Part shown: positions 35,948-64,000 of the stretch, in pieces
Numbering within the stretch: the first letter of the stretch is position 1
Layout: each line of letters starts with the position of its first letter
NCBI GenBank assembly: GCA_965262725.1
Contig: OZ253555.1
Coordinates: 2,496,001-2,560,000 of the forward strand
DNA from: Dehalococcoidia bacterium
Lineage (GTDB): Bacteria > Chloroflexota > Dehalococcoidia > UBA2979
Direction: 5' to 3'
Length of the DNA stretch: 64,000 nt
Notes under the pieces: generated by a model
What the model was told of the DNA's origin: nothing
Seen by the model: only the letters and a program-made list of their open reading frames with translations
The model's database searches: none
Program-made: the position numbers and the translations under genes

Positions 35948-35973
35948 CGTTCCACCGCGAAGGTGTTCGCTCG

Positions 35974-50129: not shown

Positions 50130-53100
50130 TGTCGCAGCCGCGAGACGTCTACCGGCAGATCGCCGACGCGTACCTCCGGTACTACGACACCGCCTTCTGG
50201 GTGCGAACCCCCGAGGTGCGAGCCGAGCGCCGTCACTTGCTCGCTACGGAAGGGGTCATCACGCGAGAGCCCCTCCTGGAGCCGGTGCTTCCGTACCCTC
50301 CCGCGGAACCTCTCGCACAGGTGACCAGACGCGTTGGTCTCAGCCCGGGAGTCTCCGACACGCTGGCCAAGATGCTGTTCCCAGGGCTGGCGACCGGCGC
50401 GGCCTTCCGGTTGCGGGAGCACCAGGGGAGGGCACTAGAGCTCTCGCTCTCGGACGCTGGTGCGGGCCCGGTGAACCCCGTGATTACCACCGGAACCGGA
50501 TCAGGCAAGACGGAGAGCTTTCTGCTGCCAGTGTTCGCCCGCCTGCTGCGCGAGGCGGAGCAGAACGGCGGTTGGCGGGCGGACGCCAAGCCAGTTCACT
50601 GTTGGTGGGACGAAGCTGAGGGGTCGGCGTGGGAGCCGGTGAGAACCTCTCGCGAGGAACGGCCAGCCGCGGTTCGGGCGCTGATCCTCTACCCGACAAA
50701 CGCGCTCGTTGAAGACCAGATCACTCGAATCCGGAGAGCTATTCATATCGCGGCCCGCCCGGACCGGTCGGGGCCGCAGTTCTTCTTCGGGCGGTACACG
50801 GGTGAGACGCTCGGCGGGGCGCGCATCCAGCGGCCCGCTGCGCTCCGAGGCCAGCACGTCCTCCAGGTGGCACGCGAGGTCCGCCAGATGGCTGCCGACG
50901 CTGCGGGGCTCGCCGGCGAGCTCCGTGTGCAGTTCCCTGACCCGGTTCGCGGCGAGATGGTAACCCGCTGGGACATGGTCGCAGCGCCTCCGGACATCCT
51001 CGTGTCAAACTTCTCGATGCTCAACGTGATGCTGATGCGGGGCTTTGAGGATCCCCTCTGGGCACAAACTCGCGCCTGGCTGCGCGACGACCGAAACGTC
51101 TTCACTCTGGTTATCGACGAGCTTCACCAGCAACGCGGTACGCCCGGGAGCGAGGTTGCATTGGTCATCCGCAACCTGCTCATGCGGCTGGGCCTGGAGC
51201 CGGACTCCCCGCAGCTACGTTGCATCGGAACGAGTGCATCGCTGGAACCTGGGGGCCCCGCGTCCGGCGATGGGCTGCCCGAGGAATATCTCGAGCAGTT
51301 CTTCGGCGTCCCACGGAACCGGTTCGAGATCGTGCCCGGCACACCTGTAGTGCCGTCCTCAGAGCTCCCCCTACCGCGAACTCGCTTCGAGGAGATCGCC
51401 AGCCTAGAGGGAGCTGACCGCAGCGACGCGCTGCTCGATGCGGTTGAACGGTTCCAGCTGCCGGAGGCCGTTGCGTCGAGCTGCGCGGGATCACCGCCAC
51501 GCGCGACCGCGATCCGCGAGATCGAGCAGTCTCTCTTCGGGGATGTCGTGGAGGGGTCACCCGCCATGGATATTGCCCTCGAGGCTCTCGCAGCCCGGAC
51601 CCCGGACGCCGGGGCAGTGACCTTCCGGTCGCACATGTTCATCCGGAACGTGACCGGCTTGTGGGCCTGCTCAAACCCGAACTGCCGCGACCTCGACGAT
51701 CGGTGGCGGCACGCCGATCGCCGCATCGGCAGGCTCTTCACGTCCCCGACTCCGGCCTGTAGCTGCGGATCGCGCGTCCTCGAGCTCCTCTACTGCGAGC
51801 AGTGCGGTGAGGAATCGCTGGGCGGGATCGTGGTTGCCAGGGAGGAGACCGGCGGCTCGCCATCGTGGTACCTGGGCGCGGAGGAGGCAGAGTTCCCTCC
51901 CGTCCAGCAGGCTCGGGTCAACCAGCGGCTCTACGACCGCTACATGTGGTACCGGCCGGGGCCACCAGAACCCGGGACAGACGGATGGTCACACGACAGC
52001 ACCCGACTCGCGTTCGCGCCTGCTACCTGGATGCCCGAGGTTGGCCTCCTTCGCCGAACCCCGCCGGGGCGCGATCCAACGGGAACGATCCTCCTGGCGA
52101 GCGGCGCCCCAGATCCTGAGCATGGCGCCGTCCCCGCGATTCCCGAGCGCTGTCCGAATTGCGCTCATCGCCGCCACAACCGACCGCGAGACTTCTTCCG
52201 GGGTACCGTTCGAAGCTCTATCCGCGGGATGAGGACCGGTTTCGCGCGCGTCAGTCAGGTGGCGCTTGACCAGCTCATCCGAGCGCTCGCCCATGACGGT
52301 GGCGAACCGAGAACGATCGTCTTTTCCGACAGCCGTGATGAGGCCGCTGTGGCTGCCGCAGGGATCGAACTGAACCACTTCCGTGACTTGGTGCGCCAGC
52401 TCACGGACCGGTTGCTCGGCGAACAACGCTCGCTCCCCGCTCTCATGCTCTCAGCAGCCCATGGAAAGGACCCGAGCGGTAGTGAATCGGCCCAGCTCGA
52501 GCTCGCGAAGAGCGAGCACCCCGATGTCTGGGCCGCGTACCAGGCCGTGCACCGGTACGGCGTCGACGATGACTCGGCGCGGGCCGCGATCGGTGCCTTC
52601 GAAGAGGTCCAGGCTGGTACGGCCCAGAAGCTCTCGTGGGACGATCTCCTGCGCCGGCTTGAACGAGCACTCGTCGCGCTCGGAGTCAATCCCGCCGGTC
52701 CGGGGGCCAGCCACTCGCACTGGGGGCCCGGAAGGTCGTTCCGGTGGTGGCAGGCCTACGCCCCACCGACACCTGGAGCCTGGGAGGTCGCAGGTTCGGC
52801 GGTCGACCGCCGGGTACAGTCGGGCGAAGTGCGCGAGCAAGAGCTCTCCGTCACCCTGTTCTCGTCCCTCTTCGACTTCACGGCCCGGGACTTCGAGTCG
52901 CTCGGGCTCGGCTGGATCGAACCAACGCGGACCGGGCCTGCGTCCATCGGTTCTCTTTCGCCCGCGGAGACGCGAGAGCTGCTCCTCAGCGCGATTCGCA
53001 TCCTCGGTCTCGCTGGCACGTACCCCGGTGCGCGTTGGTTTACGGGCCGCGAGAACATGCCCGTGGCGCTGCGAAAGTACGTCCGCGCCGTCGCAGACCT

Positions 53101-55537
53101 CCACGGAGTTGCGGCCGAATCCCTGGCAAGCGAACTAGCAACCGCGCTTCGCGAGACGGGAGTGATCACGGAGCGATGGGCGCTGGACGCCTCCCACTTG
53201 CGCGTGGCCCGATGGTCACGCGGGGATAGCGCCCCGGTCCGCTGCATGACGTGTGCGCGTGTGCACCTGCATGAGTCTGCGGGGGTGTGCACGTCGCGTG
53301 AGTGCTACTCCACGCAGTTCGAGGCAGCTGACCTCGACCAGCGCGATGACGGCTACTTCGAATGGCTCGCCCGCACAGCACCCTTCCGCCTCCGGACGGA
53401 GGAGCTCACTGGCCAGACGAAGCCCCTCTCCGTGCAGCGCGCACGGCAGCGCTACTTCAAGCACGCCTTCAAGGAAGAACCTGCGGAGCATGCGCTGAGC
53501 CACGGTATCGATGTGCTCAGCGTCACCACGACGATGGAGGTCGGAGTCGACATCGGGAGCTTGCGCTCCATTGTGATGGCGAACATGCCGCCGCAGCGGT
53601 TCAACTACCAGCAACGCGTGGGACGCGCGGGACGGCTAGGCCAGCCGTACTCGTACGCCCTCACGGTCTGCCGGGATCAGACCCACGACGACTACTATTT
53701 CAACCACCCGGAGCGGATCACAGGTGACCGGCCTCCGAGCCCGTACCTCGACCTTGCTCGGGAGTCGATAGTGCAACGGGTGGTTGCGGCAGAGGTGCTC
53801 CGTCGCGCGTTCAGCACTCTCGAGCCGGGATTCGACGGCGGCGGGAACGTCCACGGCCCCTTCGGGGAGGCGTCGGACTGGGCCGCGAACCGCTCTCACA
53901 TCGCGGGCTGGTTGTCATCCGGCCCCGACGTGAGGGATGTCGCGGCCCGGCTCACCACGTACACGGGCGTCGAAGCCCGCCACCTCGAGGACTGGGTGCG
54001 GGGAGACCTCGTGGGAGAGATCGACCGGGCGCTGGACAACCCTGCGTACACCCACCCCGATCTCAGCGAGCGGCTCGCCAATGCAGGTTTGCTTCCAATG
54101 TTCGGATTCCCTACCCGGGTGCGTCCCCTCTACTGGCGCGAGCCGAGATCCGCCTCAGATATCGAAAGCGCGATCGTCGCGGATCGGGATATCGAGCTGG
54201 CTGTCTCCAACTTCGCACCTGGGTCGGAAGTCGTGAAGGACAAGCAGAAGCACACAGTGGTTGGGTTCGCTCACTGGATCCCCTCCGGTGGACGTGCTAT
54301 CCAGGTTGACGACCCCCTCGGCGACGCTCATCCGGTGCTGCGCTGCACGCATTGCGGCGCTGTCGCGGTACGGGAGGGTGCCTCGGCTACATGTCCGGTG
54401 TGCGACCGAACCGCTGATACGTTCGATATGTACGAGCCGCAGGGGTTCAGAACGGACTTCCGTCCTCAGGACTTCGACGATCGCTTCGAGAGAGGTCCGG
54501 CATCCGCCCGGCCGCAGCTGGGGCTCAACGCCCCGGCGCGGGGGCACTTCCGGACGGGGGCGGTCGAGGTGAGCGTATTCGAGGCAGCCGACGTGTTCAC
54601 GATCAATGACAACGGCGGGAGGCTGTTCGGGCTCAAGCGCCGCGGGAAGTCCGTGCTCGTCGAGGATCCCGCCCTCTACGCGGATCCTCCATACGGTATC
54701 CAAGTCGGCCAGGATCCCCCCGACATCAGGGCTGCTATCGGTTCAGTCCGGCGAACGGACGCGCTCACGGCGACTCTCGTAGACCTGGCCCTTCCTGGTG
54801 GCTTGCGCGTGATCAGTACGCGGAGGCCTCCTGGGACCGCACTCGCGCCGGGACTCGCAGCTCTCCTCTCCTACGCGGCACTCCTGCGCGTGACCGCCGC
54901 GCAGGAAGTCCTCGATATCCGAGCCGCGGAACTCCAGGTTGGACTGCAACCGGTCAGGGTAGATGGTGATCTCACGCAGCGGATCTTCCTCGCCGACGAT
55001 CTGGCGAACGGAGCGGGCTACGCATCATTCCTCGGGAGCCACACCGAAATGCAGCGCCTGCTGCGGCAAGCGCTCCAGCTCGGCCAATCCTTCGAGCGTC
55101 AGCCGCACGCGTCGCGGTGCGGGGGCTCGTGTCCCGACTGCCTGCGCAGCTACGACAACAGGTGGCTCCATCCAGCCCTTGACTGGCGGCTTGCGCTCGA
55201 TGTCGCGGAACTGGCTGCGGGCGAACCGCTGCACGATGAACGCTGGCTGCGCACCGTTCCCGCGCACATCGACGCGTTCCTCTCTGGCTACTCGGGCGCA
55301 GCGCTGCAGCCAGTGCAGCTCGGACCGCTGGCGGGGATCCTGCACGCGGATCTCCGACGGGCCGTGTTCATCTCACCGCCGCTGTGGCCGTTCGAGAGCC
55401 AGTACTACGCTGAACAGCAGGCCGAGGCGCAGATCGCGGCGTCGATGATGGGGGCTGAAGCCCTCTCCTTCGATGCGTTCTCGTTCGGGAGACTGCCGAG
55501 CCGTGTTTTCGCGTGGCTGAGAGGGGGCACCCTGTGA
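50129..55537 (+). CDS. druE: DEAD/DEAH-box helicase with DUF1998 domain, Druantia DruE-like
   Basis: YLRYYDTAF, TGTGSGKTESF, LYPTNALVEDQ, IDELH, TSAS, FSDSRDEAA, TTTMEVGVDIG, YQQRVGRAGR, C-terminal ANGAGYA...CGGSCPDCLRSYDN. Confidence 0.82.
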   Translation: MSQPRDVYRQIADAYLRYYDTAFWVRTPEVRAERRHLLATEGVITREPLLEPVLPYPPAEPLAQVTRRVGLSPGVSDTLAKMLFPGLATGAAFRLREHQGRALELSLSDAGAGPVNPVITTGTGSGKTESFLLPVFARLLREAEQNGGWRADAKPVHCWWDEAEGSAWEPVRTSREERPAAVRALILYPTNALVEDQITRIRRAIHIAARPDRSGPQFFFGRYTGETLGGARIQRPAALRGQHVLQVAREVRQMAADAAGLAGELRVQFPDPVRGEMVTRWDMVAAPPDILVSNFSMLNVMLMRGFEDPLWAQTRAWLRDDRNVFTLVIDELHQQRGTPGSEVALVIRNLLMRLGLEPDSPQLRCIGTSASLEPGGPASGDGLPEEYLEQFFGVPRNRFEIVPGTPVVPSSELPLPRTRFEEIASLEGADRSDALLDAVERFQLPEAVASSCAGSPPRATAIREIEQSLFGDVVEGSPAMDIALEALAARTPDAGAVTFRSHMFIRNVTGLWACSNPNCRDLDDRWRHADRRIGRLFTSPTPACSCGSRVLELLYCEQCGEESLGGIVVAREETGGSPSWYLGAEEAEFPPVQQARVNQRLYDRYMWYRPGPPEPGTDGWSHDSTRLAFAPATWMPEVGLLRRTPPGRDPTGTILLASGAPDPEHGAVPAIPERCPNCAHRRHNRPRDFFRGTVRSSIRGMRTGFARVSQVALDQLIRALAHDGGEPRTIVFSDSRDEAAVAAAGIELNHFRDLVRQLTDRLLGEQRSLPALMLSAAHGKDPSGSESAQLELAKSEHPDVWAAYQAVHRYGVDDDSARAAIGAFEEVQAGTAQKLSWDDLLRRLERALVALGVNPAGPGASHSHWGPGRSFRWWQAYAPPTPGAWEVAGSAVDRRVQSGEVREQELSVTLFSSLFDFTARDFESLGLGWIEPTRTGPASIGSLSPAETRELLLSAIRILGLAGTYPGARWFTGRENMPVALRKYVRAVADLHGVAAESLASELATALRETGVITERWALDASHLRVARWSRGDSAPVRCMTCARVHLHESAGVCTSRECYSTQFEAADLDQRDDGYFEWLARTAPFRLRTEELTGQTKPLSVQRARQRYFKHAFKEEPAEHALSHGIDVLSVTTTMEVGVDIGSLRSIVMANMPPQRFNYQQRVGRAGRLGQPYSYALTVCRDQTHDDYYFNHPERITGDRPPSPYLDLARESIVQRVVAAEVLRRAFSTLEPGFDGGGNVHGPFGEASDWAANRSHIAGWLSSGPDVRDVAARLTTYTGVEARHLEDWVRGDLVGEIDRALDNPAYTHPDLSERLANAGLLPMFGFPTRVRPLYWREPRSASDIESAIVADRDIELAVSNFAPGSEVVKDKQKHTVVGFAHWIPSGGRAIQVDDPLGDAHPVLRCTHCGAVAVREGASATCPVCDRTADTFDMYEPQGFRTDFRPQDFDDRFERGPASARPQLGLNAPARGHFRTGAVEVSVFEAADVFTINDNGGRLFGLKRRGKSVLVEDPALYADPPYGIQVGQDPPDIRAAIGSVRRTDALTATLVDLALPGGLRVISTRRPPGTALAPGLAALLSYAALLRVTAAQEVLDIRAAELQVGLQPVRVDGDLTQRIFLADDLANGAGYASFLGSHTEMQRLLRQALQLGQSFERQPHASRCGGSCPDCLRSYDNRWLHPALDWRLALDVAELAAGEPLHDERWLRTVPAHIDAFLSGYSGAALQPVQLGPLAGILHADLRRAVFISPPLWPFESQYYAEQQAEAQIAASMMGAEALSFDAFSFGRLPSRVFAWLRGGTL

Positions 55538-55651
55538 TCGCCGCCCGTTCACCTCAACCGCTTCCGATCGCGTCGATCTCAGCGACGCAGTTCGCGGTCC
55601 TCTCGGACTGCGTGTGTCAGGCGGCCTTCGGACGCGACCCGTTGTTGTAGT

Positions 55652-55830
55652 TGACCGGACCCCTTCGCGAGGCTACCGCTATGAGAGTCCACCCGATTGT
55701 TCCGCCCTCCATTGCTCGGCGTAGGTAGCCGGGGAGAGCCAGCCCACGCTGATGTGCGGCGCGTCGTGCTGTACTCGATCCACCAGTCCTCGATCAGCAC
55801 CTGCGCCTCGAGCAGGCTGTCGAACCGCAT
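55652..55830 (-). pseudogene. IS3-family transposase 3' remnant with right end
   Basis: FDSLLEAQVLIEDWWIEY / H.SVGWLSPATYAEQW, with terminal GGGGTCCGGTCA. Confidence 0.75.
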
Positions 55831-56975
55831 TGCGCTGTGAGCCACGCGCGGTAGCCCGCAACTTCGTAGCGGGCATCGGTCAGCAACCGTTCCGTCTCGC
55901 CGATCAATTCTTCATTCAAGTCCGGCTGCTGTTCAAGGGTGGTGTCGACATCTAGACGGCGGGTTGAGCGCTTCACGATGGCCTTCGCGGTTGCGCACTC
56001 ATCTACCGATGCCGGCGCGGCCAGCGAGAACGCGTCTGGCGACGCTGCGATGACCGGATCGAAGCGAAGGGCGAACGAGACCAAGTCCTCCCGGACGGCA
56101 ACGGGATCGATTCGGTACCCATGTGTGCTTGCGAGCTGGACGCGACTGGGACCATAAACCTGCACCAGCGCCGACAGCCACTTGCAAATGGCAGCGGTCA
56201 TGAGAATGAGAAGGTCGGCCTCGCTGCACGTCGCAGGATCAATGGACTCCACATCCGATTCCAGTAGCTCCTCGCACGCTTCGGCGAATCCCTCGCAGTT
56301 GGCGACATTCTCACGAAAAAGACCCATGAGCCGCTGCTCGGCACCTGCGTCAAACATCCCACGTCCTATCCTCGTCGTGATGAGCAGAAGCCATGGGTTG
56401 TGGTTTCGCGCTTGAAAAGCCGTCAGCTGCGCCAGTGCCTCGTAGATCGATCCGCCGCTCTGCGGCGACTCGGATGCAAGCCCGTCGCAGAGGTCAATGT
56501 TGACAACATCGAACGGGCCGAGCTGCTCGGTCCGAGACCACGCGATCGACTTCGGATTGCCGATGCGCCGGAAATCATCGTGAATTACCCTGGACTGCGG
56601 ATCGACATTTGGCAGCCGCCGTACTTCGTCGAGCGAAACGCTCAGTTGGAGGTGCGCGGAGTTGCCGGGCTGCGCTTCCGTGTTGAATCCAAGGAAGCGC
56701 AGTGGGCGGTCGGTCGCTCGGCAAAGCTCCTCGTGCAGGTACCGCAGATCGATCAAGTCTGTACCAGGCAGGCCCAAGTAACGCAGCGGATCCCCCGGTT
56801 CCCGCTTCTCGTAGAGGCGCCGGAGCAAGACTGACAACTGCTCGCGCCGGACGAACTGCTTGCGTGGCCTGTGCCACGACTTGAACTCCTTCGGTTCCGC
56901 CTGCGTAGGCAGATATTCGATACCGCCAAAGATTCCTGCGATTAGATCGTCATGATCGCCCGATTGCTCGGTCAT
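55794..56975 (-). CDS. Uncharacterised protein with a SAM-methyltransferase-like fold (recalled as 'PP_RS20740 family')
   Basis: WHRPRKQFVR, YLGLPGTDLIDLR, FLGFN, FDVVNIDLCD. ATGA overlap with the upstream ATPase. The last few codons run into the IS3 remnant. Confidence 0.7.
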   Translation of the reverse strand: MTEQSGDHDDLIAGIFGGIEYLPTQAEPKEFKSWHRPRKQFVRREQLSVLLRRLYEKREPGDPLRYLGLPGTDLIDLRYLHEELCRATDRPLRFLGFNTEAQPGNSAHLQLSVSLDEVRRLPNVDPQSRVIHDDFRRIGNPKSIAWSRTEQLGPFDVVNIDLCDGLASESPQSGGSIYEALAQLTAFQARNHNPWLLLITTRIGRGMFDAGAEQRLMGLFRENVANCEGFAEACEELLESDVESIDPATCSEADLLILMTAAICKWLSALVQVYGPSRVQLASTHGYRIDPVAVREDLVSFALRFDPVIAASPDAFSLAAPASVDECATAKAIVKRSTRRLDVDTTLEQQPDLNEELIGETERLLTDARYEVAGYRAWLTAQCGSTACSRRRC

Positions 56976-59020
56976 TGATCGGACGTCTCGAGGATCTGAC
57001 GCATCCCGGAGAGGAGCCGTTCCTGCTGCTGGTCGGTCAGGCCCTCAAAAACTCCATACGCGGCGAGGACCTGGACGATCGTGCGCAGCTTACGCTCGGC
57101 TGAATCGCCCCGGCGCGTGCCCCGCCGGTCGAGTTCGCGGAAGACCGGCTCGCGCCTGAACCGATACGCTCCGGGCCTGGCAGGTGTCAGCTCGTCGGCC
57201 TCATCGGCGAAGTCGACCGGCGGCGGTTCCGCGCCTGGATCGTCGGACTCGTCCCGCCATGCTCGGGCTGCGACACTCGACAGAGCCTCCTCTTCCTCGT
57301 CCGCGGCGGCCTCGCGGGTAGCTGTGCGGATTGCAGCCGCGATGCGCTTCTGAACCGTCGCCACGCGCCTGAGCGACGCGTGGAGCCACTGCGTGAGGTA
57401 TACGACGTGTGGATGGGCGTAATTGAACGACTCACGATCGATGTTCAGCGCCGCTTCCAGACCCTCCGAGACAAATATCTCACACGAGATCTGCCTCAGC
57501 CGCGTCTGCTCGGATACCTGATACCGCAGGAACGTCGGGTCGAACAGCGTTCCGCTCGATCCGTGAACCCGGACGAGAACGCCCTGATGCTCGGTAGGAG
57601 CGATCTTCGGCGCCCACATGAGGTATGCCTCGAACTCAAGTGGGCCGCCAGTGAGTTCGGGCGGCACGCCGTCGAATTCCTCTCGGCATCGTCCGACGAC
57701 GAGGATCGGCTTCTTGACTGCGTGGCTCGTCTCAGGGAGATTCCTGAACAAGAGGGGACGAGCGAGCCGCAGGTCGTCGACGAGTACAGTGAAGTCGCTC
57801 CCGACATCGGCTGCAGAGCCGATCGACTTGCTCAGGCGAATTGTCTCGTCGTCGGTGAGTTTGAACTCGGCTGCTGCTTCTCTGATGGACTGCGGCATTT
57901 CGAAGAGACGGAGCTCGTCCTGAAGCAGAAGGTCGAATGGGTTACCCGAGACGTACGGCGCGGGAATAGCCAGACTCAGCTGCCACACCATCCGGAGGTA
58001 GTAGTCAAAGATGCGTTCGAGCTGGGGGTTGGGTGTTCCTCGCTCAACGCGCTGCCATACAGCCTTGACCAGCTTCTCGAAGGCGACCTCTGGTCGATCA
58101 TCGCGAGACCACGGGAGGCTGCTGTAGGCATCGGCGTCATTCTGGAGAACACCGGCGTCATCCGGCCGCACGCGCCCGATGTGGAAGTCAGGCGGCCTGA
58201 GGTCCCGGTTCCTCGCTTCGCTAGGCGCCAAGGCGGGGTCGGAATCGATAACCGCCCACAGGTCACGGCTCTGGAGCCTGTCGCGAGTCTGCGGCCGTAT
58301 GTCAGTGAGGATGATCGTCGTACCGTGCGAGTGGGCGTCGGAAGCTGGCTCGCGCCAGATCGTCACCCGCCCCGCCTCGTACGCCCCTTCTTCGTTCGGC
58401 CTAGGCGCACCCTCGTCCGAGTATTGGCGGAGCACGACCGATGCGATGGTCCGGAAGGGATCACCAGCTGTCGTCGTGATGATCTGGAAGCGGTGGGTCA
58501 GCTGGGCGACTGAGAAGAGGCCGATCCCAATCTTCCCGATGAGTCGGCGCCCCGACGGGCTGAGCGCTAAGTCCGTGGTACTCGCGATTCCAAGCTCGGC
58601 TCCATCGGGTGACCGCTTCGCGCTGCCCCCGATGTGGTGGAGCAGGTGGGCAAGAGCGGCGGGTGTCATACCCATGCCGTCGTCCTCCACCGACAGCGCG
58701 TGGAACCGGGGTCGATCGGTCTTTATGACTACCTGTTTCGCATCTGCGTCGTAGGCGTTCGACACAAGCTCCCGTATCGCCGACCCCGGCTGCCGGTAGA
58801 TGCCGTCAGTGACACGGGCAAGAACCTGCTCGTCTGTCCGGAGAACGGTGCTGACGGGGGATTCGCTGGAGCTGACTGCTATATGGGCAGCGAGGACGGC
58901 GTCCTCCTCGCGTCGTGGATCGTGCGCCGGGGTCACCGATTCCCCCAGCTGCGCGGATGGAGAGGATCCAGCGCTTGTCGCCGTGGGGGCCGCACGGCCG
59001 CGATCCATGCCGACGAGCAT
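56972..59020 (-). CDS. MORC-type GHKL ATPase
   Basis: IYRQPGSAIRELVSNAYDADA, EDDGMGM, IGGSAK, IGKIGIGLFS, HGTTIIL, S5-like GVLVRV...CEIFV...ALNIDRESF. Start uncertain (59020, 59008 or about 58936). Confidence 0.88.
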   Translation of the reverse strand: MLVGMDRGRAAPTATSAGSSPSAQLGESVTPAHDPRREEDAVLAAHIAVSSSESPVSTVLRTDEQVLARVTDGIYRQPGSAIRELVSNAYDADAKQVVIKTDRPRFHALSVEDDGMGMTPAALAHLLHHIGGSAKRSPDGAELGIASTTDLALSPSGRRLIGKIGIGLFSVAQLTHRFQIITTTAGDPFRTIASVVLRQYSDEGAPRPNEEGAYEAGRVTIWREPASDAHSHGTTIILTDIRPQTRDRLQSRDLWAVIDSDPALAPSEARNRDLRPPDFHIGRVRPDDAGVLQNDADAYSSLPWSRDDRPEVAFEKLVKAVWQRVERGTPNPQLERIFDYYLRMVWQLSLAIPAPYVSGNPFDLLLQDELRLFEMPQSIREAAAEFKLTDDETIRLSKSIGSAADVGSDFTVLVDDLRLARPLLFRNLPETSHAVKKPILVVGRCREEFDGVPPELTGGPLEFEAYLMWAPKIAPTEHQGVLVRVHGSSGTLFDPTFLRYQVSEQTRLRQISCEIFVSEGLEAALNIDRESFNYAHPHVVYLTQWLHASLRRVATVQKRIAAAIRTATREAAADEEEEALSSVAARAWRDESDDPGAEPPPVDFADEADELTPARPGAYRFRREPVFRELDRRGTRRGDSAERKLRTIVQVLAAYGVFEGLTDQQQERLLSGMRQILETSDQ

Positions 59021-59582
59021 CGAAGGCCCGTCACCCCTCGGGGGTCCGAGTCCGCGTCCAGCAGGGGCGGCGTGAAGTGGAGACCAGCGGCGTTCTCGAC
59101 GATGTGCGAACCCGCCAGCGCTCCGCGCTGGCGGTCGAGGGCGTAGCTCGTTTGAAGAAGGTAAGGGGCCATTTCACCCTGTCACACCCACCCCACTCTA
59201 CAGGGACGATGTGGACAGTAGCTTCGCGAGGAGCGCTGGTTTCCGCCAGATGGCGATGACGTCCGCGCGTTTATGCGAGGTTACACACCGCCCCCCGACG
59301 GGAGGTGATGGTGGAGGCCCTCAACGGGGTCGGGCATTCCGATACACTGCGCTACAGGTCGAGGCCCGACGCGGGGCCAGAATCAGGTTCCGGGCTGAGT
59401 CCGCATCGTTCTCGCGTGGCGGAGTAGCGGCGAGACCTGAACCCGCCCCGGCTCCGAGGGTGGCTGCGCCAGCTCTTAGGTCGAGCAGCCCCCGGAGAAG
59501 AAGGCGCACGGAACCGGCATCGGCGGTGCGGTTGTGCTTACCATGATCCGGGCTGCCTCTCGGTCGGAATGCTGAGGACTGA

Positions 59583-61388
59583 ATGCAAGTCAGATCGCTT
59601 GTCGGCGCTGGACTGATCTCCCGTATCGACGAGTTGCTGGAGGCCCGGTACCGGTCCGCTGATCTGGGGAACATGGAAGATCCTCTGGACGAGACCATGT
59701 ACATCCTGCTGAGCAGGCAGACGCAGGAACCTGTCTACAGGCGGATGTACCAGAACCTCCGGCGCTGCTATCCGAGCTGGAATGACGTGCTTCAGGCTCC
59801 GGAAGAGCACCTGTCCCTTCTACTGCGCCCGGCAGGGCTCCATGAGCAGAGAGCTCGGCAAGTGAAAGCTCTACTTGCGGCAGTGCAAGAGGAGAACCGT
59901 CGGCGGGGTGTCGGGCCGGCCGCAATACCTGCAACCGACCTGACCCTCGACTTTCTCCGGACGCTCGGTGACGAGGAGGCTGAACAGTTCCTGATCCGAC
60001 TGCCGGGCATCGGCCCGAAGAGCGCACGCTGTGTCCTAGCGTATTCGCTCAACCGTCCCGCGTTCGCTGTCGACACGCACGTTCACAGGGTGTTCTCCCG
60101 GCTGGGCCTCGTCACACCGGCCGGAAGGAAGAAGGATCACGACCCATTCCAGGACGCGGTTCCCAAGGGTGCTCGGAAGCGGTTCCACATCAACCTCATC
60201 CACCACGGACGCGCGATCTGCCGTGCCAGAAGGCCGAAGTGTGGGGATTGCGTCCTCGTGTCGTTCTGCCCGGAAGGGCGCAAGACCGTAGCCAACAACG
60301 GGCGTCCCGCCGTGGTTGATCTCTTCGCCGGGGCTGGTGGCCTCGGCTATGGCTTCAGAAAGGCTGGCTTCCGTGTGGCACTTGCTGTCGAGTCAGACCG
60401 GCATGCGGCGCAAACCTATCGCCTGAACAACCCGGGTGTCCCCGTGATAGAGGCCCAGATCGATGCAACCACCTCATCACACCAGCTAGCCCGCTTCATG
60501 CCTGGCGTCGAGCAGGTCATGGGACTCCTCGCGGGTCCGCCGTGCCAGGGATACTCAGCCGCCGGTGCGCGTGACCCCGATGCCGAAGGGAACTTCCTGT
60601 ACCGGCAGGTCGCGAGGCTGGCAGCGGAGCTACGGGCTGAGACCGTCTGCCTCGAGAACGTTCCAGGCGTACGGCGCGTCAGGGGCCACGGCTTCCTTGA
60701 CTCCATCCTACAGAGCCTCCGCGACGCGGGCTTTGCGACCGATGCTCACCTGGTTAATGCCTGCGACTTTGGAGTCCCACAGCACAGGGCACGCTATCTC
60801 TTCCTCGGGCGCCGAGGCGAAGGAACATCCCCTCCTCCTGGACCGGGTGCAACACACCGCTCCCACGGGGAGGCCGCACCGAGCCACCTGCCGGAGGTCC
60901 CCACTCTTCGCGATGCACTCGCCGCCCTGCCCGAACTTCCCGCCGGCACCACTGGAGAGCCCGTAACAGGGCCCGACGGTAGGGAGTACTTCAACGTTGA
61001 GACGATGGCACACTCGGAGCGTGTGGTGGCCAAGATCAGAGGGATCAAGCCTGGTGAGGGCCCCATCTCGTACAGACGCCTCAAGGACGATGAAGCGCGC
61101 ACGTTGATCGCTGGGCACCGCGCCCTTCCCGTCCATCCATGGCTTGACCGGACCATCTCGGTGCGTGAGGCGGCGACCATTCAGGGGTTTCCGCATCACT
61201 ACCGTTTTTCCGGACCCCGTTCAACCCAGCCTCTCCAAGTGGCTAACGCAGTTCCGCCACCGCTTGCGGAGGCTGTCGCCCTCCACCTGATGCGGGTGAC
61301 CAAGGAGGGTCGCGCACCCGCGGACCCTTCCGAGGCCGCAGCCGCTGATGCCAACGGAGCAGGTCCGCGCCAGCCGCCCGAAGCCTGA
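59583..61388 (+). CDS. Fusion of an HhH-GPD [4Fe-4S] DNA glycosylase (Nth-like) and a DNA (cytosine-5) methyltransferase
   Basis: N-terminal LSRQT, LPGIGPKSA, AVDTHVHRV, CRARRPKCGDCVLVSFC. C-terminal DLFAGAGG, GPPCQGYS, ENVPG, GVPQHRAR, RTISVREAATIQGFP, QVANAVPP. One uninterrupted frame. Confidence 0.92.
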   Translation: MQVRSLVGAGLISRIDELLEARYRSADLGNMEDPLDETMYILLSRQTQEPVYRRMYQNLRRCYPSWNDVLQAPEEHLSLLLRPAGLHEQRARQVKALLAAVQEENRRRGVGPAAIPATDLTLDFLRTLGDEEAEQFLIRLPGIGPKSARCVLAYSLNRPAFAVDTHVHRVFSRLGLVTPAGRKKDHDPFQDAVPKGARKRFHINLIHHGRAICRARRPKCGDCVLVSFCPEGRKTVANNGRPAVVDLFAGAGGLGYGFRKAGFRVALAVESDRHAAQTYRLNNPGVPVIEAQIDATTSSHQLARFMPGVEQVMGLLAGPPCQGYSAAGARDPDAEGNFLYRQVARLAAELRAETVCLENVPGVRRVRGHGFLDSILQSLRDAGFATDAHLVNACDFGVPQHRARYLFLGRRGEGTSPPPGPGATHRSHGEAAPSHLPEVPTLRDALAALPELPAGTTGEPVTGPDGREYFNVETMAHSERVVAKIRGIKPGEGPISYRRLKDDEARTLIAGHRALPVHPWLDRTISVREAATIQGFPHHYRFSGPRSTQPLQVANAVPPPLAEAVALHLMRVTKEGRAPADPSEAAAADANGAGPRQPPEA

Positions 61389-61597
61389 ACTACCCCCGCA
61401 ACACGTAGTGGCTGGGTTGCTGCCTGGACGCACTCCGCCCACGGTCCGAACGGGGGCGGCTGGGCCGCGCTCATACGAAGCGGCCGACCTGCGAGTCAGT
61501 CGCGGCGCGGCACTCGTGTAACGCGGCGAGTGTGGGGAACGGGCCGAGCGCAGGACGCACAGCGACAAGACGCGGAGGTTCGCGATGTCAGCACTCA

Positions 61598-61737
61598 CTA
61601 GTGTCCCGAGTTGCAAATGCTGAAAACAATCGCACCGAGCCTCGCAGGCCTGGTCCGCTCAGTGGAGGCTTGGGTCGCAACTGGAAACGAGCACCGGAGG
61701 CGCTTCATCTCGCACAAACCGCCGACCAGATCCTTGA
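61598..61737 (-). pseudogene. Possible IS630-family transposase 3' remnant (intron 3' exon)
   Basis: KDLV...FSICNSGH* ending in GGGACACTAG, resembling IS630 C-termini and ends. Confidence 0.4.
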
Positions 61738-62514
61738 GTAGGGTCAGGGGCTGGCGCGGTGCGAGCCGTAGGCGGTGGCGCATATTGCCAGGCCGGTTTC
61801 CCGGTGGCGCCCATCTCCACAGCCGTAGCATCGTCCGTCTCCAGCCCCTGCCGCCTCGAACCGGACGTGAGGTTTTCCCTCATCCGGCTCACCGATGCCC
61901 TTCACCGGGCGGCATGCGGGGTGCCCCGCCACGGTCGATATGGCCGTGGTGCCACGACGCGCTGTCCAGCTAGCGAGATGAGCCCCAGACGGTCGGCGAC
62001 GGGAAACGGGTGCCCGCGATGGCGTCGCCGCCAACGCAACCGCTTCCCCAGCCAGAGTTTGAGTCTCCACATGGCAAACCAGTGCAGGACGTCGAACGCC
62101 CTCGCCGAGTTGCCGTAGCGGAAGTAGCTCATCCAGCCGCGGAGGTAGCGATTGACTTCCTCCACGACCTGCCGGGGACTCAGCAGCAGACGCAACCGCG
62201 CCGTGATTTCACGGATGCGGTCCCGCGCCCGCTGCATCGCTCGCCGTGAGGGCCAGCGTGCGAGGAACTGGATATTCTTGTTGCGCTTCGCACGTACCCA
62301 GCGATGCTCGAAGCCGAGGAACTCCAGCCCCTCGCCTCCCTCCCGCAGGTGCACGATGCGCGTCTTCTCCGCCTTGAGCTCCAGTCCGAGCTCACCCAGC
62401 AGGTCACGCAGCAGGGCCAACGCCCGCTCCGCTTCCTCCCGGCTCCGGCAGAGCACCACGAGGTCATCCGCATAGCGCACCAGCACGCCATCACCCTTCG
62501 CCTCCCAGTCCCGG
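61738..62514 (-). mobile_element. 3' part of an RT-encoding group II intron
   Basis: Domains V/VI nearly identical to those at about 41180-41347, ending CCCTAC at 61738. Confidence 0.88.
61902..62514 (-). pseudogene. ltrA: Group II intron reverse transcriptase/maturase, C-terminal part, interrupted by IS21
   Basis: LVRYADDLVV, LGLELKAEKT, FLGF, maturase NRYLRGWMSYFRYGNS. No endonuclease domain. Confidence 0.88.
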
Positions 62515-64000
62515 TGGGAATGATGCTCTGAATTGGCCCCACCTGGAGCCGTTTTGATCCTTTGAATTGGCCCCACCCCCGACCCATCCAGGATCTACGC
62601 TCGGGTGACTGCATGACTCCCGGAGCGAGGGAAGAGGAGTGTGTCGAGAGTGGAGCTGTTCGAGTCTATCCGACGGATGGCGAGGGAGGAGGAGCTGTCG
62701 ATCCATGAGCTGGGACGCCGGCATGGCGTGCACCGGCGCACGGTGCGGCAGGCTCTTGGGTCGGCGATACCCCCGGAACGCAAGCAGGCGACCCGCGTGG
62801 CCCCGAAGCTCGGGCCGTACGTCTCGGTCATCCGGGGCTGGCTCGTGGACGACCTCAGCGCGCCGCGCAAGCAGCGGCACACGGCCCGGCGCATCTGGGA
62901 GCGCCTCGTCGACGAACACGGGGCGACGGTGGCCGAGCCCACGGTCCGCGCCTGCGTCGCGCGCCTGCGTCGCGAGATCCAGGGCGGGCGCGCGGTTGTG
63001 ACGATCCCGCAGGTCCATCCTCCCGGCGAGGAGGCGGAGGTCGACTTCGGCACGGTGACGGTGTGGCTGGAGGGCGTCGAGACCCGGCTGGCGATGTTCG
63101 TGATGCGGCTCTCGCATTCGGGGCGGGCGGCGCACGTCTGCTTCGTCGGCGAGGGCCAGGAGTCTCTGCTCGAGGGGCACGTGGTCGCCTTCGAGCGGCT
63201 CGGCGGAGTGCCGCGGCGCATCCGCTACGACAATCTGACGGCGGCCGTCACCACCGTGCTGCAGGGACGCGAGCGCCTGCAGACCGAGCGCTTCATCGCG
63301 CTCCGCTCGCATTACGGCTTCGACAGCTTCTTCTGTGAGCCCGGCATCGAGGGCGCGCACGAGAAGGGCGGTGTGGAGGGCGAGGTCGGCCGCTTCCGCC
63401 GGCGGCACTTCGTGCCGGTCCCGAAGGTGGCGACCCTCGGCGAGCTGAACGAACGAGTGCGGGAGGCGGACCGCACCGACGACGCCCGGCACATCGAGAG
63501 CCGCCTCGCCACCGTCGGCGAGATGGGAGAGAACGAGAAGGCCTCGCTGCGTCCGCTTCCGGCGGAGCGCTTCGACCCGTCAATCCCGCTGCGCGCGAAG
63601 GTCGACCGCAAGGCGCGCATCGCCGTGCGTAGCTCCCGCTACTCGGTCCCGGCGGCCTATGCAGGCCGGAAGCTGGACGTGCGGCTGTCCGGGAACAGCC
63701 TGACCGTGTGGGCCGAGGGGCGTGAAGTCGCCCACCACGAGCGCAGCGCCCGCACCGGAGCAGAGGTCCTGCTGCTCGACCACTATCTGGAGGTGCTCGC
63801 GCGCAAGCCCGGGGCGGTCCCGGGCTCGGTGGCGCTCCAGCAGGCGCGTGCGAAGGGACACGTCACAGCCGAGCATCAGCGCTTCTGGGACCGCGCCCGC
63901 CGCAAGCTCGGCGACCGCGCGGGCACGCAGGCGTACATCGAGGTCCTGCTCCTGCATCGCCATCTTCCCTTCACGGCGGTGCACGCCGCGCTCGGGACGG
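62515..64000 (+). mobile_element. IS21-family element (left end, runs off the window)
   Basis: Starts TGGGAATGATG, with TGAATTGGCCCCACC repeated at 62529 and 62563. Confidence 0.85.
62641..64000 (+). CDS. istA: IS21-family transposase IstA (partial, runs off the window)
   Basis: Translated by hand: MSRVELFESIRR..GVHRRTVRQAL..PRKQRHTARRIWERL..GEEAEVDFG..IRYDNL..HEKGGVEGEVG. GAGGAG RBS. Confidence 0.92.
   Translation, partial: MSRVELFESIRRMAREEELSIHELGRRHGVHRRTVRQALGSAIPPERKQATRVAPKLGPYVSVIRGWLVDDLSAPRKQRHTARRIWERLVDEHGATVAEPTVRACVARLRREIQGGRAVVTIPQVHPPGEEAEVDFGTVTVWLEGVETRLAMFVMRLSHSGRAAHVCFVGEGQESLLEGHVVAFERLGGVPRRIRYDNLTAAVTTVLQGRERLQTERFIALRSHYGFDSFFCEPGIEGAHEKGGVEGEVGRFRRRHFVPVPKVATLGELNERVREADRTDDARHIESRLATVGEMGENEKASLRPLPAERFDPSIPLRAKVDRKARIAVRSSRYSVPAAYAGRKLDVRLSGNSLTVWAEGREVAHHERSARTGAEVLLLDHYLEVLARKPGAVPGSVALQQARAKGHVTAEHQRFWDRARRKLGDRAGTQAYIEVLLLHRHLPFTAVHAALGT

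Follow-up and report, generated by a model that had tools for sequence, protein, structure and literature searches.

The 64-kb stretch of Dehalococcoidia DNA analysed here (hereafter the window) carries three neighbouring genes at 55794..61388. Two of them are located on the minus strand, i.e., the gene for P0002, a GHKL (MORC/Hsp90-like) ATPase (56972..59020; 682 amino acids in the ORF as listed), and, downstream of it, the gene for P0001, a 393-residue partner protein of the PP_RS20740 family with a putative class I methyltransferase-like Rossmann fold (55794..56975). The third, on the plus strand, encodes P0003, a 601-residue fusion of an Endonuclease III (EndoIII)-like domain and a C5 cytosine methylase (59583..61388). 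Given the letters at the minus-strand junction (...GATCAATGACCGAG...), the start codon (ATG) of the partner gene and the stop codon (TGA) of the ATPase gene overlap in the tetranucleotide ATGA, and the listed starts of the divergent P0002 and P0003 genes are 562 bp apart. The three ORFs, their coupling and their divergent arrangement are all found in the sequence as a first-pass annotation had described them.

The true start of the ATPase is probably a GTG at 58936, resulting in a protein of about 654 residues, since the alignment of relatives to P0002 begins only at about residue 24-40, and, in three related loci (L001, L002, and L004), the reading frame of the extension at the N-terminus of the listed ORF is broken by stop codons just upstream. 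With this start, the divergent gap grows to 646 bp. Immediately 5' of it, alignment with relatives reveals a conserved non-coding leader on the minus strand (58937..59110), which can be aligned with L001, L002, L004, and L007 irrespective of the arrangement of the methylase gene. Its substitutions are spread over the three codon positions without periodicity (125/108/115), and no covariation in it was supported by RNAalifold (term +1.56).

The window contains a defence island. Besides Druantia, it comprises two CRISPR arrays, type I-G cas genes, and a Lamassu/MADS-like ATPase, and its GC content is 62-67% vs. 70-77% upstream. The Druantia genes immediately adjoin the triad on the plus strand and encode DruF with a DruL-like C-terminus (46635-50129; PADLOC DruF2, 466.9 bits; DruL4, 78 bits for residues 900-1156) and DruE (50111-55537; DruE2, 1527 bits). 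These matches, together with the CRISPR-Cas genes, agree with the earlier placement of the triad in a defence island beside Druantia. The Druantia genes are context, possibly functionally linked to the triad.

The three proteins

Residues 79-187 of P0002 match Pfam HATPase_c_3 (50.3 bits; cut-off 25). Its AlphaFold2 model (pLDDT 83.8, pTM 0.80) has MORC2 with DNA as the best match in the PDB (E 7.5e-11, about 555 aligned columns), followed by Hsp90, MORC3, and topoisomerase VI-B. The model supports a GHKL domain followed by a transducer/S5-like middle domain, in agreement with the architecture assigned earlier. The ATP-binding residues E84, N88, D113, G115, G117, G162, G165-G167, and T234 do not vary in any of the 36 sequences aligned. 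An H536-P-H538 motif is invariant as well. The protein had also been called a MORC ATPase. Sequence models, however, place P0002 closer to Hsp90/sacsin-type or MutL-type GHKL proteins, and "MORC" is only an approximate label.

P0001 is a member of NCBIfam PP_RS20740 (NF047698; 346.9 bits, cut-off 200), and matches to it were absent from Pfam-A and PADLOC. NCBIfam lists PP_RS20740 as a family without assigned function. In the literature, one paper was found to name it; according to the accessible part of that source, a P. putida mutant allele of PP_RS20740 is tied to the tolerance of furfural (PMC9630843). At 50% identity, 1022 representatives of the family match with an E-value of at most 1e-3 (722 with E ≤ 1e-10). 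Among the 150 matches listed, 142 are 375-424 residues long, and the other eight have 263-342 residues or 483 and 511 residues. No matches were found among 50,697 phage and 72,556 plasmid records.

The AlphaFold2 model of P0001 has only a moderate pLDDT (65.6). Every top Foldseek match read was a class I SAM methyltransferase (best E 4.2e-4), although the TM scores were just 0.2-0.4. The model thus supports the Rossmann-like, methyltransferase-type fold proposed in the first-pass annotation, and the motifs quoted there are present in the translation (YLGLPG at residues 66-71 and FDVVNIDLCD at 155-164). In the alignment of 80 partners, i.e., the window protein and those of 79 loci, R38, K39, R43, Y66, L69, P70, G71, D73, D76, G96, S128, N159, D161, Q188, W266, and Y287 are identical throughout. 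Neither a glycine-rich SAM loop nor an acidic residue after strand 2 is conserved within the family. Hence, the "two modifying enzymes" of the earlier account are uncertain with regard to P0001.

The identities of the ATPases and of the partners co-vary over 2346 locus pairs (Spearman 0.89), and a complex of the two proteins was predicted with an ipSAE of 0.83 (0.83, 0.83, and 0.81 in separate runs), the best control reaching 0.00. At least 94% of the contacts were common to the runs, and the pLDDT of the partner was at least 85. In a benchmark, 116 of 157 solved complexes and 2 of 215 mismatched pairs attained this value, counts that apply only roughly because the analysis used its own alignments. 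The partner is predicted to dock on the outer β-sheet face of the nucleotide-binding domain of the ATPase, leaving free an invariant polar cluster in the Rossmann crevice (D73, D76, N159, D161, and C163). One database protein, P0078, combines a GHKL C-terminus and a full partner in a single ORF.

In P0003, residues 1-235 (59583..60287) form an EndoIII-like HhH-GPD/[4Fe-4S] glycosylase domain and residues 236-601 (60288..61388) a C5 cytosine DNA methyltransferase domain. The former comprises an HhH-GPD match (residues 42-180, 47.9 bits) and an EndoIII iron-sulfur motif in Pfam. Its closest solved structure is D. radiodurans EndoIII-1 (E 2.2e-30), and structure 1KEA was also among the matches. 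It retains the lyase lysine K146, D164, and the cluster cysteines C213-x6-C220-x2-C223-x5-C229. The methylase domain matches PF00145 (residues 244-568, 169.1 bits) and TIGR00675 dcm (131 bits; cut-off 100.65) and displays the motifs DLFAGAGG (246), PPCQG (319), ENVPG (358), QHRAR (400), and NAVPP (555). The glycosylase-methylase fusion recognized earlier is thus confirmed within one ORF. No nuclease family or fold, neither a hidden PD-(D/E)XK domain nor another one, was found in the three proteins with Pfam, PADLOC, NCBIfam, or Foldseek, consistent with the absence of a nuclease that had been claimed.

Recurrence of the cassette and its accessory genes

In all 80 related loci, a GHKL ATPase gene is located immediately upstream of a partner homologue, in most of them with a stop/start overlap of 1-8 nt. 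A C5 methylase gene is present within 2.5 kb in 68 of the 80, i.e., upstream on the same strand in 52, divergent as in the window in 6, and downstream in 10. With about 60-1130 nt between them and the ATPase gene, the 52 co-directional methylase genes are operonic with it. Of the 12 loci without a methylase gene, five are on contigs that end within about 1.1 kb upstream. The loci originate from Chloroflexota, Actinomycetota, Pseudomonadota, Bacteroidota, Planctomycetota, and others, and are partly non-independent: L077, L079, and L080 are from one genome, as are L003 and L005, and many of L016-L023 are closely related to each other. Judged from these sequences, the three genes are a copy of a widespread, recurrent cassette, the distribution of which is best explained by horizontal mobility. 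The first-pass annotation had proposed a three-gene unit, and the recurrence supports a real functional unit: a C5 methylase accompanies the pair in the 68 loci, and five loci have a full fusion of EndoIII and methylase. PADLOC (v2.0.0), in which the lack of a hit had been proposed as a sign of novelty, has no model for the ATPase/partner pair, and a literature search found no experimental work on the pair as a defence system.

Near-identical pairs can keep unrelated methylases: in 125 locus pairs, the partners are at least 65% identical, and in 39 of these 125, the methylases are less than 40% identical. By these comparisons, the methylase is exchanged freely relative to the ATPase/partner pair. 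In this respect, the cassette is unlike a classical sequence-matched restriction-modification (R-M) pair, which would not tolerate such swaps.

EndoIII-like elements are found beside 21 of the 80 cassettes, as full-length fusions (5), separate genes (3), or decayed relics (13), the latter with internal deletions that removed the HhH motif and the lysine. Genes for the Vsr mismatch endonuclease occupy a similar position beside 22 cassettes, three of which also have an EndoIII-like element; all ten Vsr genes tested match PF03852. In L033, the EndoIII lysine is lost and Vsr is also present. The separate glycosylases (L002, L007, and L008) have a tyrosine at the position of the catalytic lysine, a hallmark of MutY and of Mig, a T:G glycosylase. 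The latter, Mig.MthI (structure 1KEA), belongs to the MthTI R-M plasmid. As in the case of Vsr and Mig.MthI, a repair activity that undoes deamination of 5-methylcytosine seems to be encoded beside a C5 methylase, but in the window the putative glycosylase is fused to the methylase, keeps the EndoIII-type lysine, and is closest to D. radiodurans EndoIII-1. Because few cassettes carry an EndoIII element, most such elements are decayed, and Vsr fills a similar position in others, the EndoIII domain is, on sequence grounds, most likely an accessory that repairs deaminated 5-methylcytosine, and not the glycosylase/lyase effector that had been suggested before.

Methylase-less loci with adequate flanks (7 of 75) are all from Actinomycetota and carry genes for HNH or NOV_C nucleases. 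An HNH protein is encoded immediately upstream of the pair in L059, L064, and L066; the one from L059, the sole one tested, matches PADLOC mREase_IV (type IV methyl-directed; 84 bits). L043, L045, and L051 encode NOV_C (PD-(D/E)XK) proteins next to the pair, and two of the three also SNF2 helicases. In these variants, nucleases of the kind that the ATPase and its partner might recruit are encoded in cis. Given these nucleases, the pair may not read "unmethylated" at all.

Known systems and possible function

Prokaryotic MORC/paraMORC ATPases were described, as a computational prediction only, as members of R-M operons that also encode cytosine methylases and Vsr (Iyer et al., 2008; PMC2292703). 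According to the accessible text of that study, these operons resemble the cassette in that cytosine methylases and Vsr accompany an ATPase with GHKL and S5-like domains, and in their sporadic, laterally mobile distribution; moreover, paraMORC5 has a conserved HxH motif, to which H536-P-H538 of P0002 is alike by description. However, they usually contain SF-II helicases or recognisable nucleases, whereas the core cassette of the window has neither, and a PP_RS20740 partner is not mentioned in that text. Pairs of Response_reg_2 (PF19192) and a HEF_HK GHKL protein (PF19191) similarly combine HATPase_c_3 with an uncharacterised α/β partner and adjoin C5 methylase genes, with PF00145 commonly upstream; the available part of the report gives 91.6% linkage in 644 regions, and its authors read the pair as a two-component signalling system (Bellieny-Rabelo et al., 2021; PMC8011034). 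Since neither profile matched P0001, P0002, or five more distant pairs (E ≤ 0.1 or 0.01), the pair of the cassette is a different family pair, at most distantly related.

HgiDII/BbrUII type II enzymes (NCBIfam NF050001; PADLOC REase_II PDLC03419) are matched by the ATPase domain alone (profile positions 17-173 of 659; 58 bits, cut-off 550), and they are single-chain enzymes, whereas the ATPase of the window has a separate partner. As far as the accessible texts describe them, Tiamat and other GHL-ATPase defence proteins, among them the Shedu-type VcSduA/paraMORC3, use a GHKL ATPase in phage defence, with modular effectors and methylase neighbours (bioRxiv 10.64898/2026.09.30.754977; PMC12137116). 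The NOV_C proteins flanking the pair in three loci are a further likeness. Tiamat and VcSduA have the nuclease in the same chain, unlike P0002, in which DUF3684, NOV_C, and DUF4263 were absent (Pfam) and which did not match PADLOC TmtA.

We favor, with a probability of roughly 0.55, the view that the C5 methylase, the GHKL ATPase, and the PP_RS20740 partner constitute a paraMORC-type, methylation-gated and ATP-dependent R-M-like module, probably an unusual restriction-like defence without a recognisable DNA-cutting enzyme. Against this view, the search of the three proteins yielded no nuclease domain that could be the effector of "restriction". The methylase would mark the host DNA. A dimer of the ATPase would close on DNA in an ATP-dependent manner, like MORC, MutL, and Hsp90-type GHKL proteins, and, together with the partner, act on DNA that does not carry the mark. 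The damaging step could be performed either by the partner itself, at a cryptic catalytic site, or by recruited nucleases encoded elsewhere. The fused EndoIII domain would remove T or U opposite G after deamination of 5-methylcytosine or cytosine, i.e., do the job of Vsr in other copies of the cassette.

Type II Druantia is reportedly organized as DruM-DruF-DruG-DruE. A less probable explanation is that P0003 acts (also) as DruM for the type II-like Druantia next to it, and that the ATPase pair either stands alone as a two-gene module or forms a five-gene composite with Druantia. Like type II Druantia, the window has a C5 methylase beside DruF and DruE; no second one was found in the 64 kb. 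P0003 matches DruM2 (190.4 bits), albeit less well than MTase_II, its top PADLOC match (246.9 bits), while P0001 and P0002 match no Druantia model in PADLOC. Two unrelated genomes likewise have DruF and DruE next to the cassette, on one strand in the orders methylase-GHKL-partner-DruF-DruE (L024) and DruF-DruE-GHKL-partner (L071), and the methylase of the cassette is the only one there. Also on an Alisedimentitalea plasmid, DruF-DruE adjoins a C5 methylase module. However, full-length DruF and DruE matches are found in only 2 of the 80 loci (L054 has a single short DruE match of 70 residues), as opposed to 68 with a methylase beside the pair, 66 of which have the methylase without Druantia, and in 52 loci the methylase is operonic with the ATPase. 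Nevertheless, the methylase of P0003 could also serve the neighbouring Druantia as DruM.

Somewhat less plausible is a self-contained module outside defence, for maintenance and repair of 5-methylcytosine or for epigenetic purposes, in which a MutL-like ATPase and its partner would aid very-short-patch-type repair or read methylation for regulation. Vsr or T:G-type glycosylase accessories are frequent, the core is devoid of a nuclease, and E. coli MutL stimulates Vsr. Furthermore, the P. putida family member came from a stress-tolerance screen and not from a phage screen, according to the accessible text (PMC9630843). Yet only 29 of the 80 loci have a Vsr gene or a glycosylase that looks intact, whereas the pair is constant, and the patchy spread over phyla and the lower-GC defence island around the window copy argue against this explanation, as do the methylase-less variants, whose HNH, NOV_C, and SNF2 partners poorly fit repair of self-inflicted deamination.

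These same nucleases, including the mREase_IV match, would suit a type IV-like, modification-dependent module that senses modified cytosines, with the methylase protecting from another system or setting a non-recognised pattern, for instance. Tolerance of methylase swaps is consistent with this option, and so is the report, in the available part of the source, that EndoIII-like domains can sense modified bases in END nucleases (PMC12191111). It is, however, improbable, as an operonic C5 methylase would make a 5-methylcytosine-directed system self-targeting, and the methylase-less loci are few and confined to one phylum. Finally, the scheme initially suggested, a nuclease-free system with the glycosylase/lyase as the agent that damages foreign DNA and with another modifying enzyme and the ATPase clamp as its helpers, is very unlikely: the window EndoIII domain retains its catalytic and cluster residues and no nuclease was found elsewhere in the triad, but 59 of the 80 cassettes lack an EndoIII-like element, 13 of the 21 existing ones have lost the HhH motif and the lysine, L033 has Vsr but no lysine, the three separate genes encode MutY/Mig-type proteins, and such a dispensable and decaying domain is not what would be expected of an effector.

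Linkage of the three genes

The three genes encode a GHKL ATPase (P0002; 56972-59020, minus strand, 682 aa as listed), a 393-aa partner protein (P0001; 55794-56975, minus strand) and a fusion of an endonuclease III (EndoIII)-like domain with a C5 methylase (P0003; 59583-61388, plus strand, 601 aa). ORF calls in the window reproduced all three as the first-pass annotation had described them. The ATGA coupling it reported is also present, i.e., the start codon of P0001 overlaps the stop codon of P0002, with CAATGACC as the minus-strand junction, and the motifs it quoted for the partner, YLGLPG and FDVVNIDLCD, are both found in the P0001 translation. The listed start of P0002 is probably too far upstream, since the alignment with its relatives begins only at approximately residue 24-40 and the frame matching the N-terminal extension contains stop codons in three related loci (L001, L002, and L004). 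Initiation at the GTG at 58936 would yield a protein of 654 aa, and homologues typically measure 650-660 aa.

An alignment of P0001 relatives was scanned against one genome per species for 185,579 species. The scan retrieved 137 relatives, and 80 loci were kept. The closest loci, with 54-79% identity, are from Chloroflexota, Acidimicrobiia, and other sponge-associated MAGs; further loci are found in Gamma-, Beta-, Alpha-, and Deltaproteobacteria, in Bacteroidota, Planctomycetota, Verrucomicrobia, and Acidobacteria, and in Streptomyces, Micromonospora, and other actinomycetes. In all 80 loci, the gene immediately preceding the P0001 homologue encodes a P0002 homologue, with a usual overlap of 1-8 nt between the ATPase stop and the partner start. 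A C5 methylase gene is located within 2.5 kb of this pair in 68 of the 80 loci (upstream and co-directional in 52, divergent in six, as it is in the window, and downstream in 10), which confirms that the three genes are a co-occurring set; these loci are partly non-independent, as one genome contributed L077, L079, and L080 and another L003 and L005, and L016-L023 are close relatives.

Where no methylase gene was present within 2.5 kb, the contig is cut within ~1.1 kb upstream (L014, L030, L048, L063, L073), a methylase gene is found 5-7.6 kb away (L045, L051), or none occurs in the 10-kb flanks (L043, L056, L059, L064, L066). In the last group, a gene for an HNH protein adjoins the pair, either upstream (L059, L064, L066) or downstream (L043, L056); the one HNH protein tested, that of L059, matches the PADLOC model of a type IV methyl-directed enzyme with 84 bits. 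NOV_C proteins, which are of the PD-(D/E)XK type, are encoded in L043, L045, and L051, and SNF2 helicases in L045 and L051. The methylase-less versions of the pair in L043, L045, L051, L056, L059, L064, and L066 are from actinomycetes, and these loci may represent a distinct, modification-dependent subtype.

The identities of ATPase and partner are closely correlated (Spearman 0.89 over 2346 locus pairs), as compared with 0.42 for partner and methylase; these correlations ignore shared ancestry and are descriptive rather than a test. The methylases are less than 40% identical in 39 of the 125 locus pairs with partners that are at least 65% identical. Between the window and L002, for example, the identity is 79% for the partner, 82% for the ATPase, and 32% for the methylase. 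Judged from these comparisons, ATPase and partner appear to be one unit, with which an exchangeable methylase is combined.

A conserved non-coding leader of ~130-190 nt abuts the ATPase start in the window (58937-59110, minus strand) and in L001, L002, L004, and L007, and it is present with divergent and co-directional methylase genes alike. A small hairpin in the leader could pair with a GGGGG Shine-Dalgarno-like run; covariation in the leader at 58937-59110 gives no support for a structured RNA. A 79-aa ORF (58933-59172, minus strand), which ends in GTGA, overlapping the revised start of the ATPase, and matches ORFs in L001, L002, L004, and L007, was rejected as a gene, because antisense frames match equally well and the substitutions show no codon periodicity. 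A scan of 55400-61800 for sigma-70 promoters detected nothing, as is expected for a high-GC organism.

The ATPase and its partner

P0002 is a GHKL ATPase (HATPase_c_3 of Pfam, 50.3 bits vs. a cut-off of 25) in which motifs I-IV of the Bergerat fold are all present. The ATP-binding residues E84, N88, D113, G115, G117, G162, G165-167, and T234 are invariant in all 36 aligned family members, which are 36-81% identical to P0002. Its AlphaFold2 model (pLDDT 83.8, pTM 0.80) has DNA-bound MORC2 (9cdj) as the best match in the PDB (E 7.5e-11, ~555 columns), followed by Hsp90, MORC3, and topoisomerase VI-B. Since the matches span ~520-620 columns, P0002 is predicted to consist of the ATPase domain and an S5-fold/transducer-like middle domain. 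Thus, the GHKL-plus-S5 architecture, read earlier from the sequence, is sustained both by motifs I-IV and by the alignment of the model with MORC2 and MORC3. The model aligns equally well with Hsp90 and topoisomerase VI-B as with MORC2 and MORC3, and the matches to sequence models (MutL, Hsp90, sacsin-type, and HgiDII/BbrUII) are all sub-threshold and confined to the ATPase domain. Therefore, “MORC-like” would be fair as a structural label, short of membership in the MORC family proper. The top structural matches listed are all GHKL-family ATPases, with no nuclease among them. A loop with the sequence LNIDRESFN..HPH (residues 525-538), followed by a 55-residue helix, is strongly conserved and presumably resembles the catalytic-arginine loop of Hsp90. 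Searches of PDB sequences with P0002 residues 430-600 and with the partner-family profile produced matches at chance level only (E 0.64-0.93).

The partner P0001 belongs to the PP_RS20740 family of NCBIfam (NF047698; 346.9 bits vs. a curated cut-off of 200), with residues 15-379 covering positions 7-383 of the 384 in the profile. It carries a PF28273 tag in the protein database, and it had no match in PADLOC or in a Pfam-A release without PF28273. The family comprises 1022 representatives at the 50% level (E <= 1e-3); 142 of the 150 members listed measure 375-424 aa. Its profile found no solved relative by sequence in the PDB, and tblastn found no partner matches in the phage and plasmid collections. 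Fused forms of the partner were not found among proteins of 794-2265 aa, an observation of little weight. A 599-aa protein (P0078) contains, in one reading frame, the C-terminal ~215 residues of a GHKL homologue and a complete PP_RS20740 homologue; this single-member cluster with its read-through from GHKL tail to partner may be a genuine fusion or an artefact of a frameshift.

The AlphaFold2 model of P0001 is of moderate quality (pLDDT 65.6). Its strands and helices follow the order known from class I methyltransferases (seven-stranded and Rossmann-like with a C-terminal β-hairpin), and the top Foldseek matches listed from the PDB are all class I methyltransferases (best E 4.2e-4, probability up to 0.98). 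The methyltransferase-like Rossmann fold that had been suggested for this protein is thereby supported, with TM scores of only 0.2-0.4. In an alignment of the window with 79 loci (27-79% identity), R38, K39, and R43, which are part of an N-terminal PWHxPRKQxVR motif, are invariant, and so are Y66, L69, P70, G71, D73, D76, G96, S128, N159, D161, Q188, W266, and Y287, whilst C163 is conserved in 77 of the 80 sequences. Within the loop Y-L-x-L-P-G-x-D, G71 is the only invariant residue of the glycine-rich SAM loop, and E100 is conserved in close relatives only. Since neither the typical glycine-rich SAM loop nor the acidic residue following strand 2 is conserved in the family, methyltransferase activity of P0001 appears doubtful.

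As furfural is a DNA-damaging compound, a link of the partner family to furfural hints at a DNA-related role. In Pseudomonas putida KT2440, a V338F substitution in the type member of the family, PP_RS20740, arose during adaptive evolution to furfural, and overexpression of the mutant allele improved furfural conversion; the accessible sections of the report offer no mechanism (PMC9630843).

[quoted passage not shown] 0.00 for the best control; at least 94% of the contacts agreed between runs, and the pLDDT of the partner was at least 85. Of 157 solved complexes, 116 reached this ipSAE mark, as did two of 215 mismatched pairs; both counts are only approximate here because own alignments were used. 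As no experimental structure of a comparable complex is known to us, the score would be unlikely to be a product of model memory. The predicted interface involves helices and loops at partner residues 103-151, which sit against the outer β-sheet face of the ATPase domain (residues 96-114, 177-194, 224-240, and 284-299), and leaves the D73/D76/N159/D161/C163 cluster of the partner exposed.

The methylase fusion and the proposed function

In P0003, an EndoIII-like HhH-GPD/[4Fe-4S] domain is joined to a complete C5 methylase. The C-terminal domain matches PF00145 (169.1 bits vs. 22) and TIGR00675 (131 bits vs. 100.65), and the C5 motifs FxGxG, PCQ, ENV, QxRxR, and GN.VPP are found at residues 246, 319, 358, 400, and 555, respectively. 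The N-terminal domain matches PF00730 (47.9 bits vs. a cut-off of 26.2), retains K146, D164, and the cluster cysteines C213, C220, C223, and C229 (Cys-x6-Cys-x2-Cys-x5-Cys), and has EndoIII-1 of D. radiodurans as its closest solved relative (E 2.2e-30). P0003 scores below the cut-offs of the Nth equivalog TIGR01083 (89.8 vs. 211.7 bits) and of the DR2438-type model NF053634 (114.8 vs. 400 bits). By these sequence criteria, the N-terminus is to be regarded as an EndoIII-like HhH-GPD domain and not as an Nth orthologue.

With a profile of this domain, EndoIII-like sequences were detected beside 21 of the 80 cassettes. Full-length fusions that keep the Lys and the Asp are present in L001, L003, L005, and L013, and one that has lost the Lys is present in L033. 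A separate EndoIII-like gene is located between the methylase and ATPase genes in L002, L007, and L008, and its product has a Tyr at the Lys position, which we take to be the MutY/Mig signature. In 13 further loci (L006, L009, L010, L012, L015-L023), a fused relic is found, from which the HhH motif and the Lys are deleted and in which the iron-sulfur cysteines are kept. Clustering of the flanking ORFs revealed one recurrent extra family, present in 22 loci, and all 10 members tested are Vsr mismatch endonucleases (PF03852). Vsr and an EndoIII-like element occur together in three loci only, i.e., in L012 and L015, which carry relics, and in L033 with its Lys-less domain. Since the glycosylase is absent from most copies, has decayed in others, and alternates with Vsr, the idea of the first-pass annotation that it is the effector of the system did not hold. 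Most simply, the EndoIII domain would repair the T:G or U:G mismatches resulting from deamination at methylated sites; the fusion, the relics, and the alternation with Vsr would then reflect two ways for C5 methylases to compensate for the mutations they cause. The relics may also have a different role, as, in END nucleases, an inactive EndoIII domain senses hypermodified DNA according to the accessible text (PMC12191111); by analogy, they are possible sensors of modified DNA.

Gene content, linkage, and motif conservation are observed and the heterocomplex is predicted; all that concerns the recognition and damage of DNA by the cassette is inferred. We consider it somewhat more probable than a coin toss (~0.55) that it is an ATP-dependent, methylation-gated restriction-like module. 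The methylase would mark self DNA, a GHKL dimer with two partners would engage DNA and act on it when it is unmarked, and the glycosylase or Vsr would repair collateral deamination. This reading has three main difficulties. First, Pfam, PADLOC, NCBIfam, and Foldseek revealed no nuclease family or fold in P0001-P0003, nor a hidden PD-(D/E)XK domain, in line with the earlier remark that no nuclease motif is obvious in the sequence. Second, the exchange of the methylase that the pair tolerates favors recognition via the mark or via the methylase itself, by analogy with type I/III or BREX-like systems, and raises the mechanistic question of how a mark is read and enforced although the reader pair tolerates such exchange.

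The third difficulty is that the methylase-less variants carry nucleases, so that the pair may, more broadly, be a general motor or licensing module, the polarity of which is set by its neighbors. Truly nuclease-free immunity, in which the partner probes cytosines for the methyl mark and licenses the ATPase to clamp unmarked DNA, seems improbable to us. In that case, the MORC/Hsp90-like ATPase could clamp and compact or stall unmarked DNA, and the methyltransferase-fold partner could be a pseudo-enzyme or an atypical cytosine-directed enzyme, considering its N-x-D-x-C loop at the position where methyltransferases hold the flipped base. In a bolder variant, target cytosines that lack the methyl group could be deaminated or cross-linked by the partner without SAM, and these lesions could then be converted into breaks by base-excision enzymes, which are here fused to the methylase. 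If true, such clamping and silencing would parallel, in bacteria, the DNA-methylation/MORC silencing axis of eukaryotes. An ordinary type II restriction-modification system is not supported: no recognizable restriction endonuclease is encoded beside the methylase in the triad, the HgiDII/BbrUII model is matched over the ATPase part only (58 bits vs. a cut-off of 550), and the tolerated methylase exchange argues against a sequence-matched type II logic.

Bacterial GHKL ATPases have been linked to restriction-modification systems by comparative genomics since 2008, when prokaryotic MORC/paraMORC ATPases were described computationally in methylase-and-Vsr operons (PMC2292703, accessible sections). 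In that study, MORCs are set apart from paraMORCs by a MORC-specific sequence motif. An analogous triad of a GHKL protein, a partner, and a C5 methylase was described in 2021; its families as given in the accessible text, PF19191 and PF19192, differ from the pair in the window, which their Pfam models do not match (PMC8011034). [quoted passage not shown] Neither the ATPase nor the partner is covered by a model in PADLOC v2.0.0. Our literature search found no experimental or explicit description of the cassette and no experiments on a nuclease-free ATPase-plus-partner pair. Demonstrated anti-phage activity is reported, in the accessible parts of the sources, only for nuclease-bearing chains, i.e., Tiamat and the Shedu-type VcSduA (10.64898/2026.09.30.754977, PMC12137116). 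With three genes, many phyla, a confidently predicted complex, and no nuclease, the cassette lends itself to a clean test of bacterial GHKL ATPases.

Druantia and the surrounding island

The GC content of the window is 70-77% up to ~24 kb and 62-67% at 40-62 kb, a fall that is consistent with an acquired island. The Druantia neighborhood noticed earlier was verified, with the DruF and DruE genes immediately upstream of the cassette. DruF (46635-50129, plus strand, 1164 aa) is a DruF2, beside which a DruE2 match is present, and its C-terminal residues 900-1156 match DruL4 of the PADLOC type IV Druantia. Thus, DruF appears to include, as a fusion, the second small Druantia protein, and a DruL-like DruF C-terminus is also encoded on plasmid NZ_CP123587. 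Type II Druantia consists of DruM, DruF, DruG, and DruE together. The window contains no second C5 methylase besides P0003, which may double as DruM; in PADLOC, P0003 matches the DruM2 models less well than the generic MTase_II model, and P0001 and P0002 match none of the Druantia models.

Two further loci have DruF and DruE genes next to the cassette, namely L024, with the five genes on one strand, and L071; L054 contains one short DruE match only. On an Alisedimentitalea plasmid (L081; NZ_CP123587.1, 41777-54935), DruF2 and DruE genes are followed by genes for a 655-aa NERD/UvrD-like protein, a C5 methylase, and an MvaI/BcnI restriction enzyme. Hence, judging from L024, L071, and L081, DruF-DruE modules tend to adjoin C5-methylase modules. 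The primary linkage of the methylase is nevertheless with the ATPase pair, as indicated by 68 loci vs. two with Druantia. A role of the GHKL ATPase as a hidden DruG was rejected, as the 655-aa protein following DruE on the plasmid is NERD/UvrD-like and unrelated to P0002.

Several other elements are located in the island. An ORF for a 182-aa HNH endonuclease (HNH_5/HNH; 46156-46704, plus strand), the end of which overlaps the listed DruF start, could represent a Druantia-associated nuclease or an independent gene. An 812-aa SMC/ABC-type ATPase (41646-44084, plus strand; PADLOC LmuB 71 bits, MADS mad3 66 bits) may be part of another, Lamassu/MADS-like, defense system of the island. A protein-like 179-aa ORF (44991-45530, minus strand) shows a D...E-x-E-A-G pattern reminiscent of PD-(D/E)XK nucleases and had no match in Pfam or PADLOC. 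Two CRISPR arrays with a period of ~73 nt are present at 25000-25765 (~10.5 copies) and 28701-30192 (~19.5 copies) and share the repeat core CTCAACGAAGGCCGGGGTTGGCACCCCGGCGACAC; type I-G (I-U) cas genes for Cas3g, Cas5/6g (GSU0054), and Cas7g (GSU0053) are located at 33158-38576 on the minus strand. Just downstream of the methylase gene, an Rfam Intron_gpII match (61825-61892, minus strand) lies beside a truncated RT/maturase ORF (61902-62576, minus strand), and a separate match to group II intron D1-D4 is found at 40554-40690 on the plus strand. A mobile element at the island edge is marked by an ORF (62641-63999, plus strand) that extends beyond the window end and encodes a Mu-transposase C-terminal domain.
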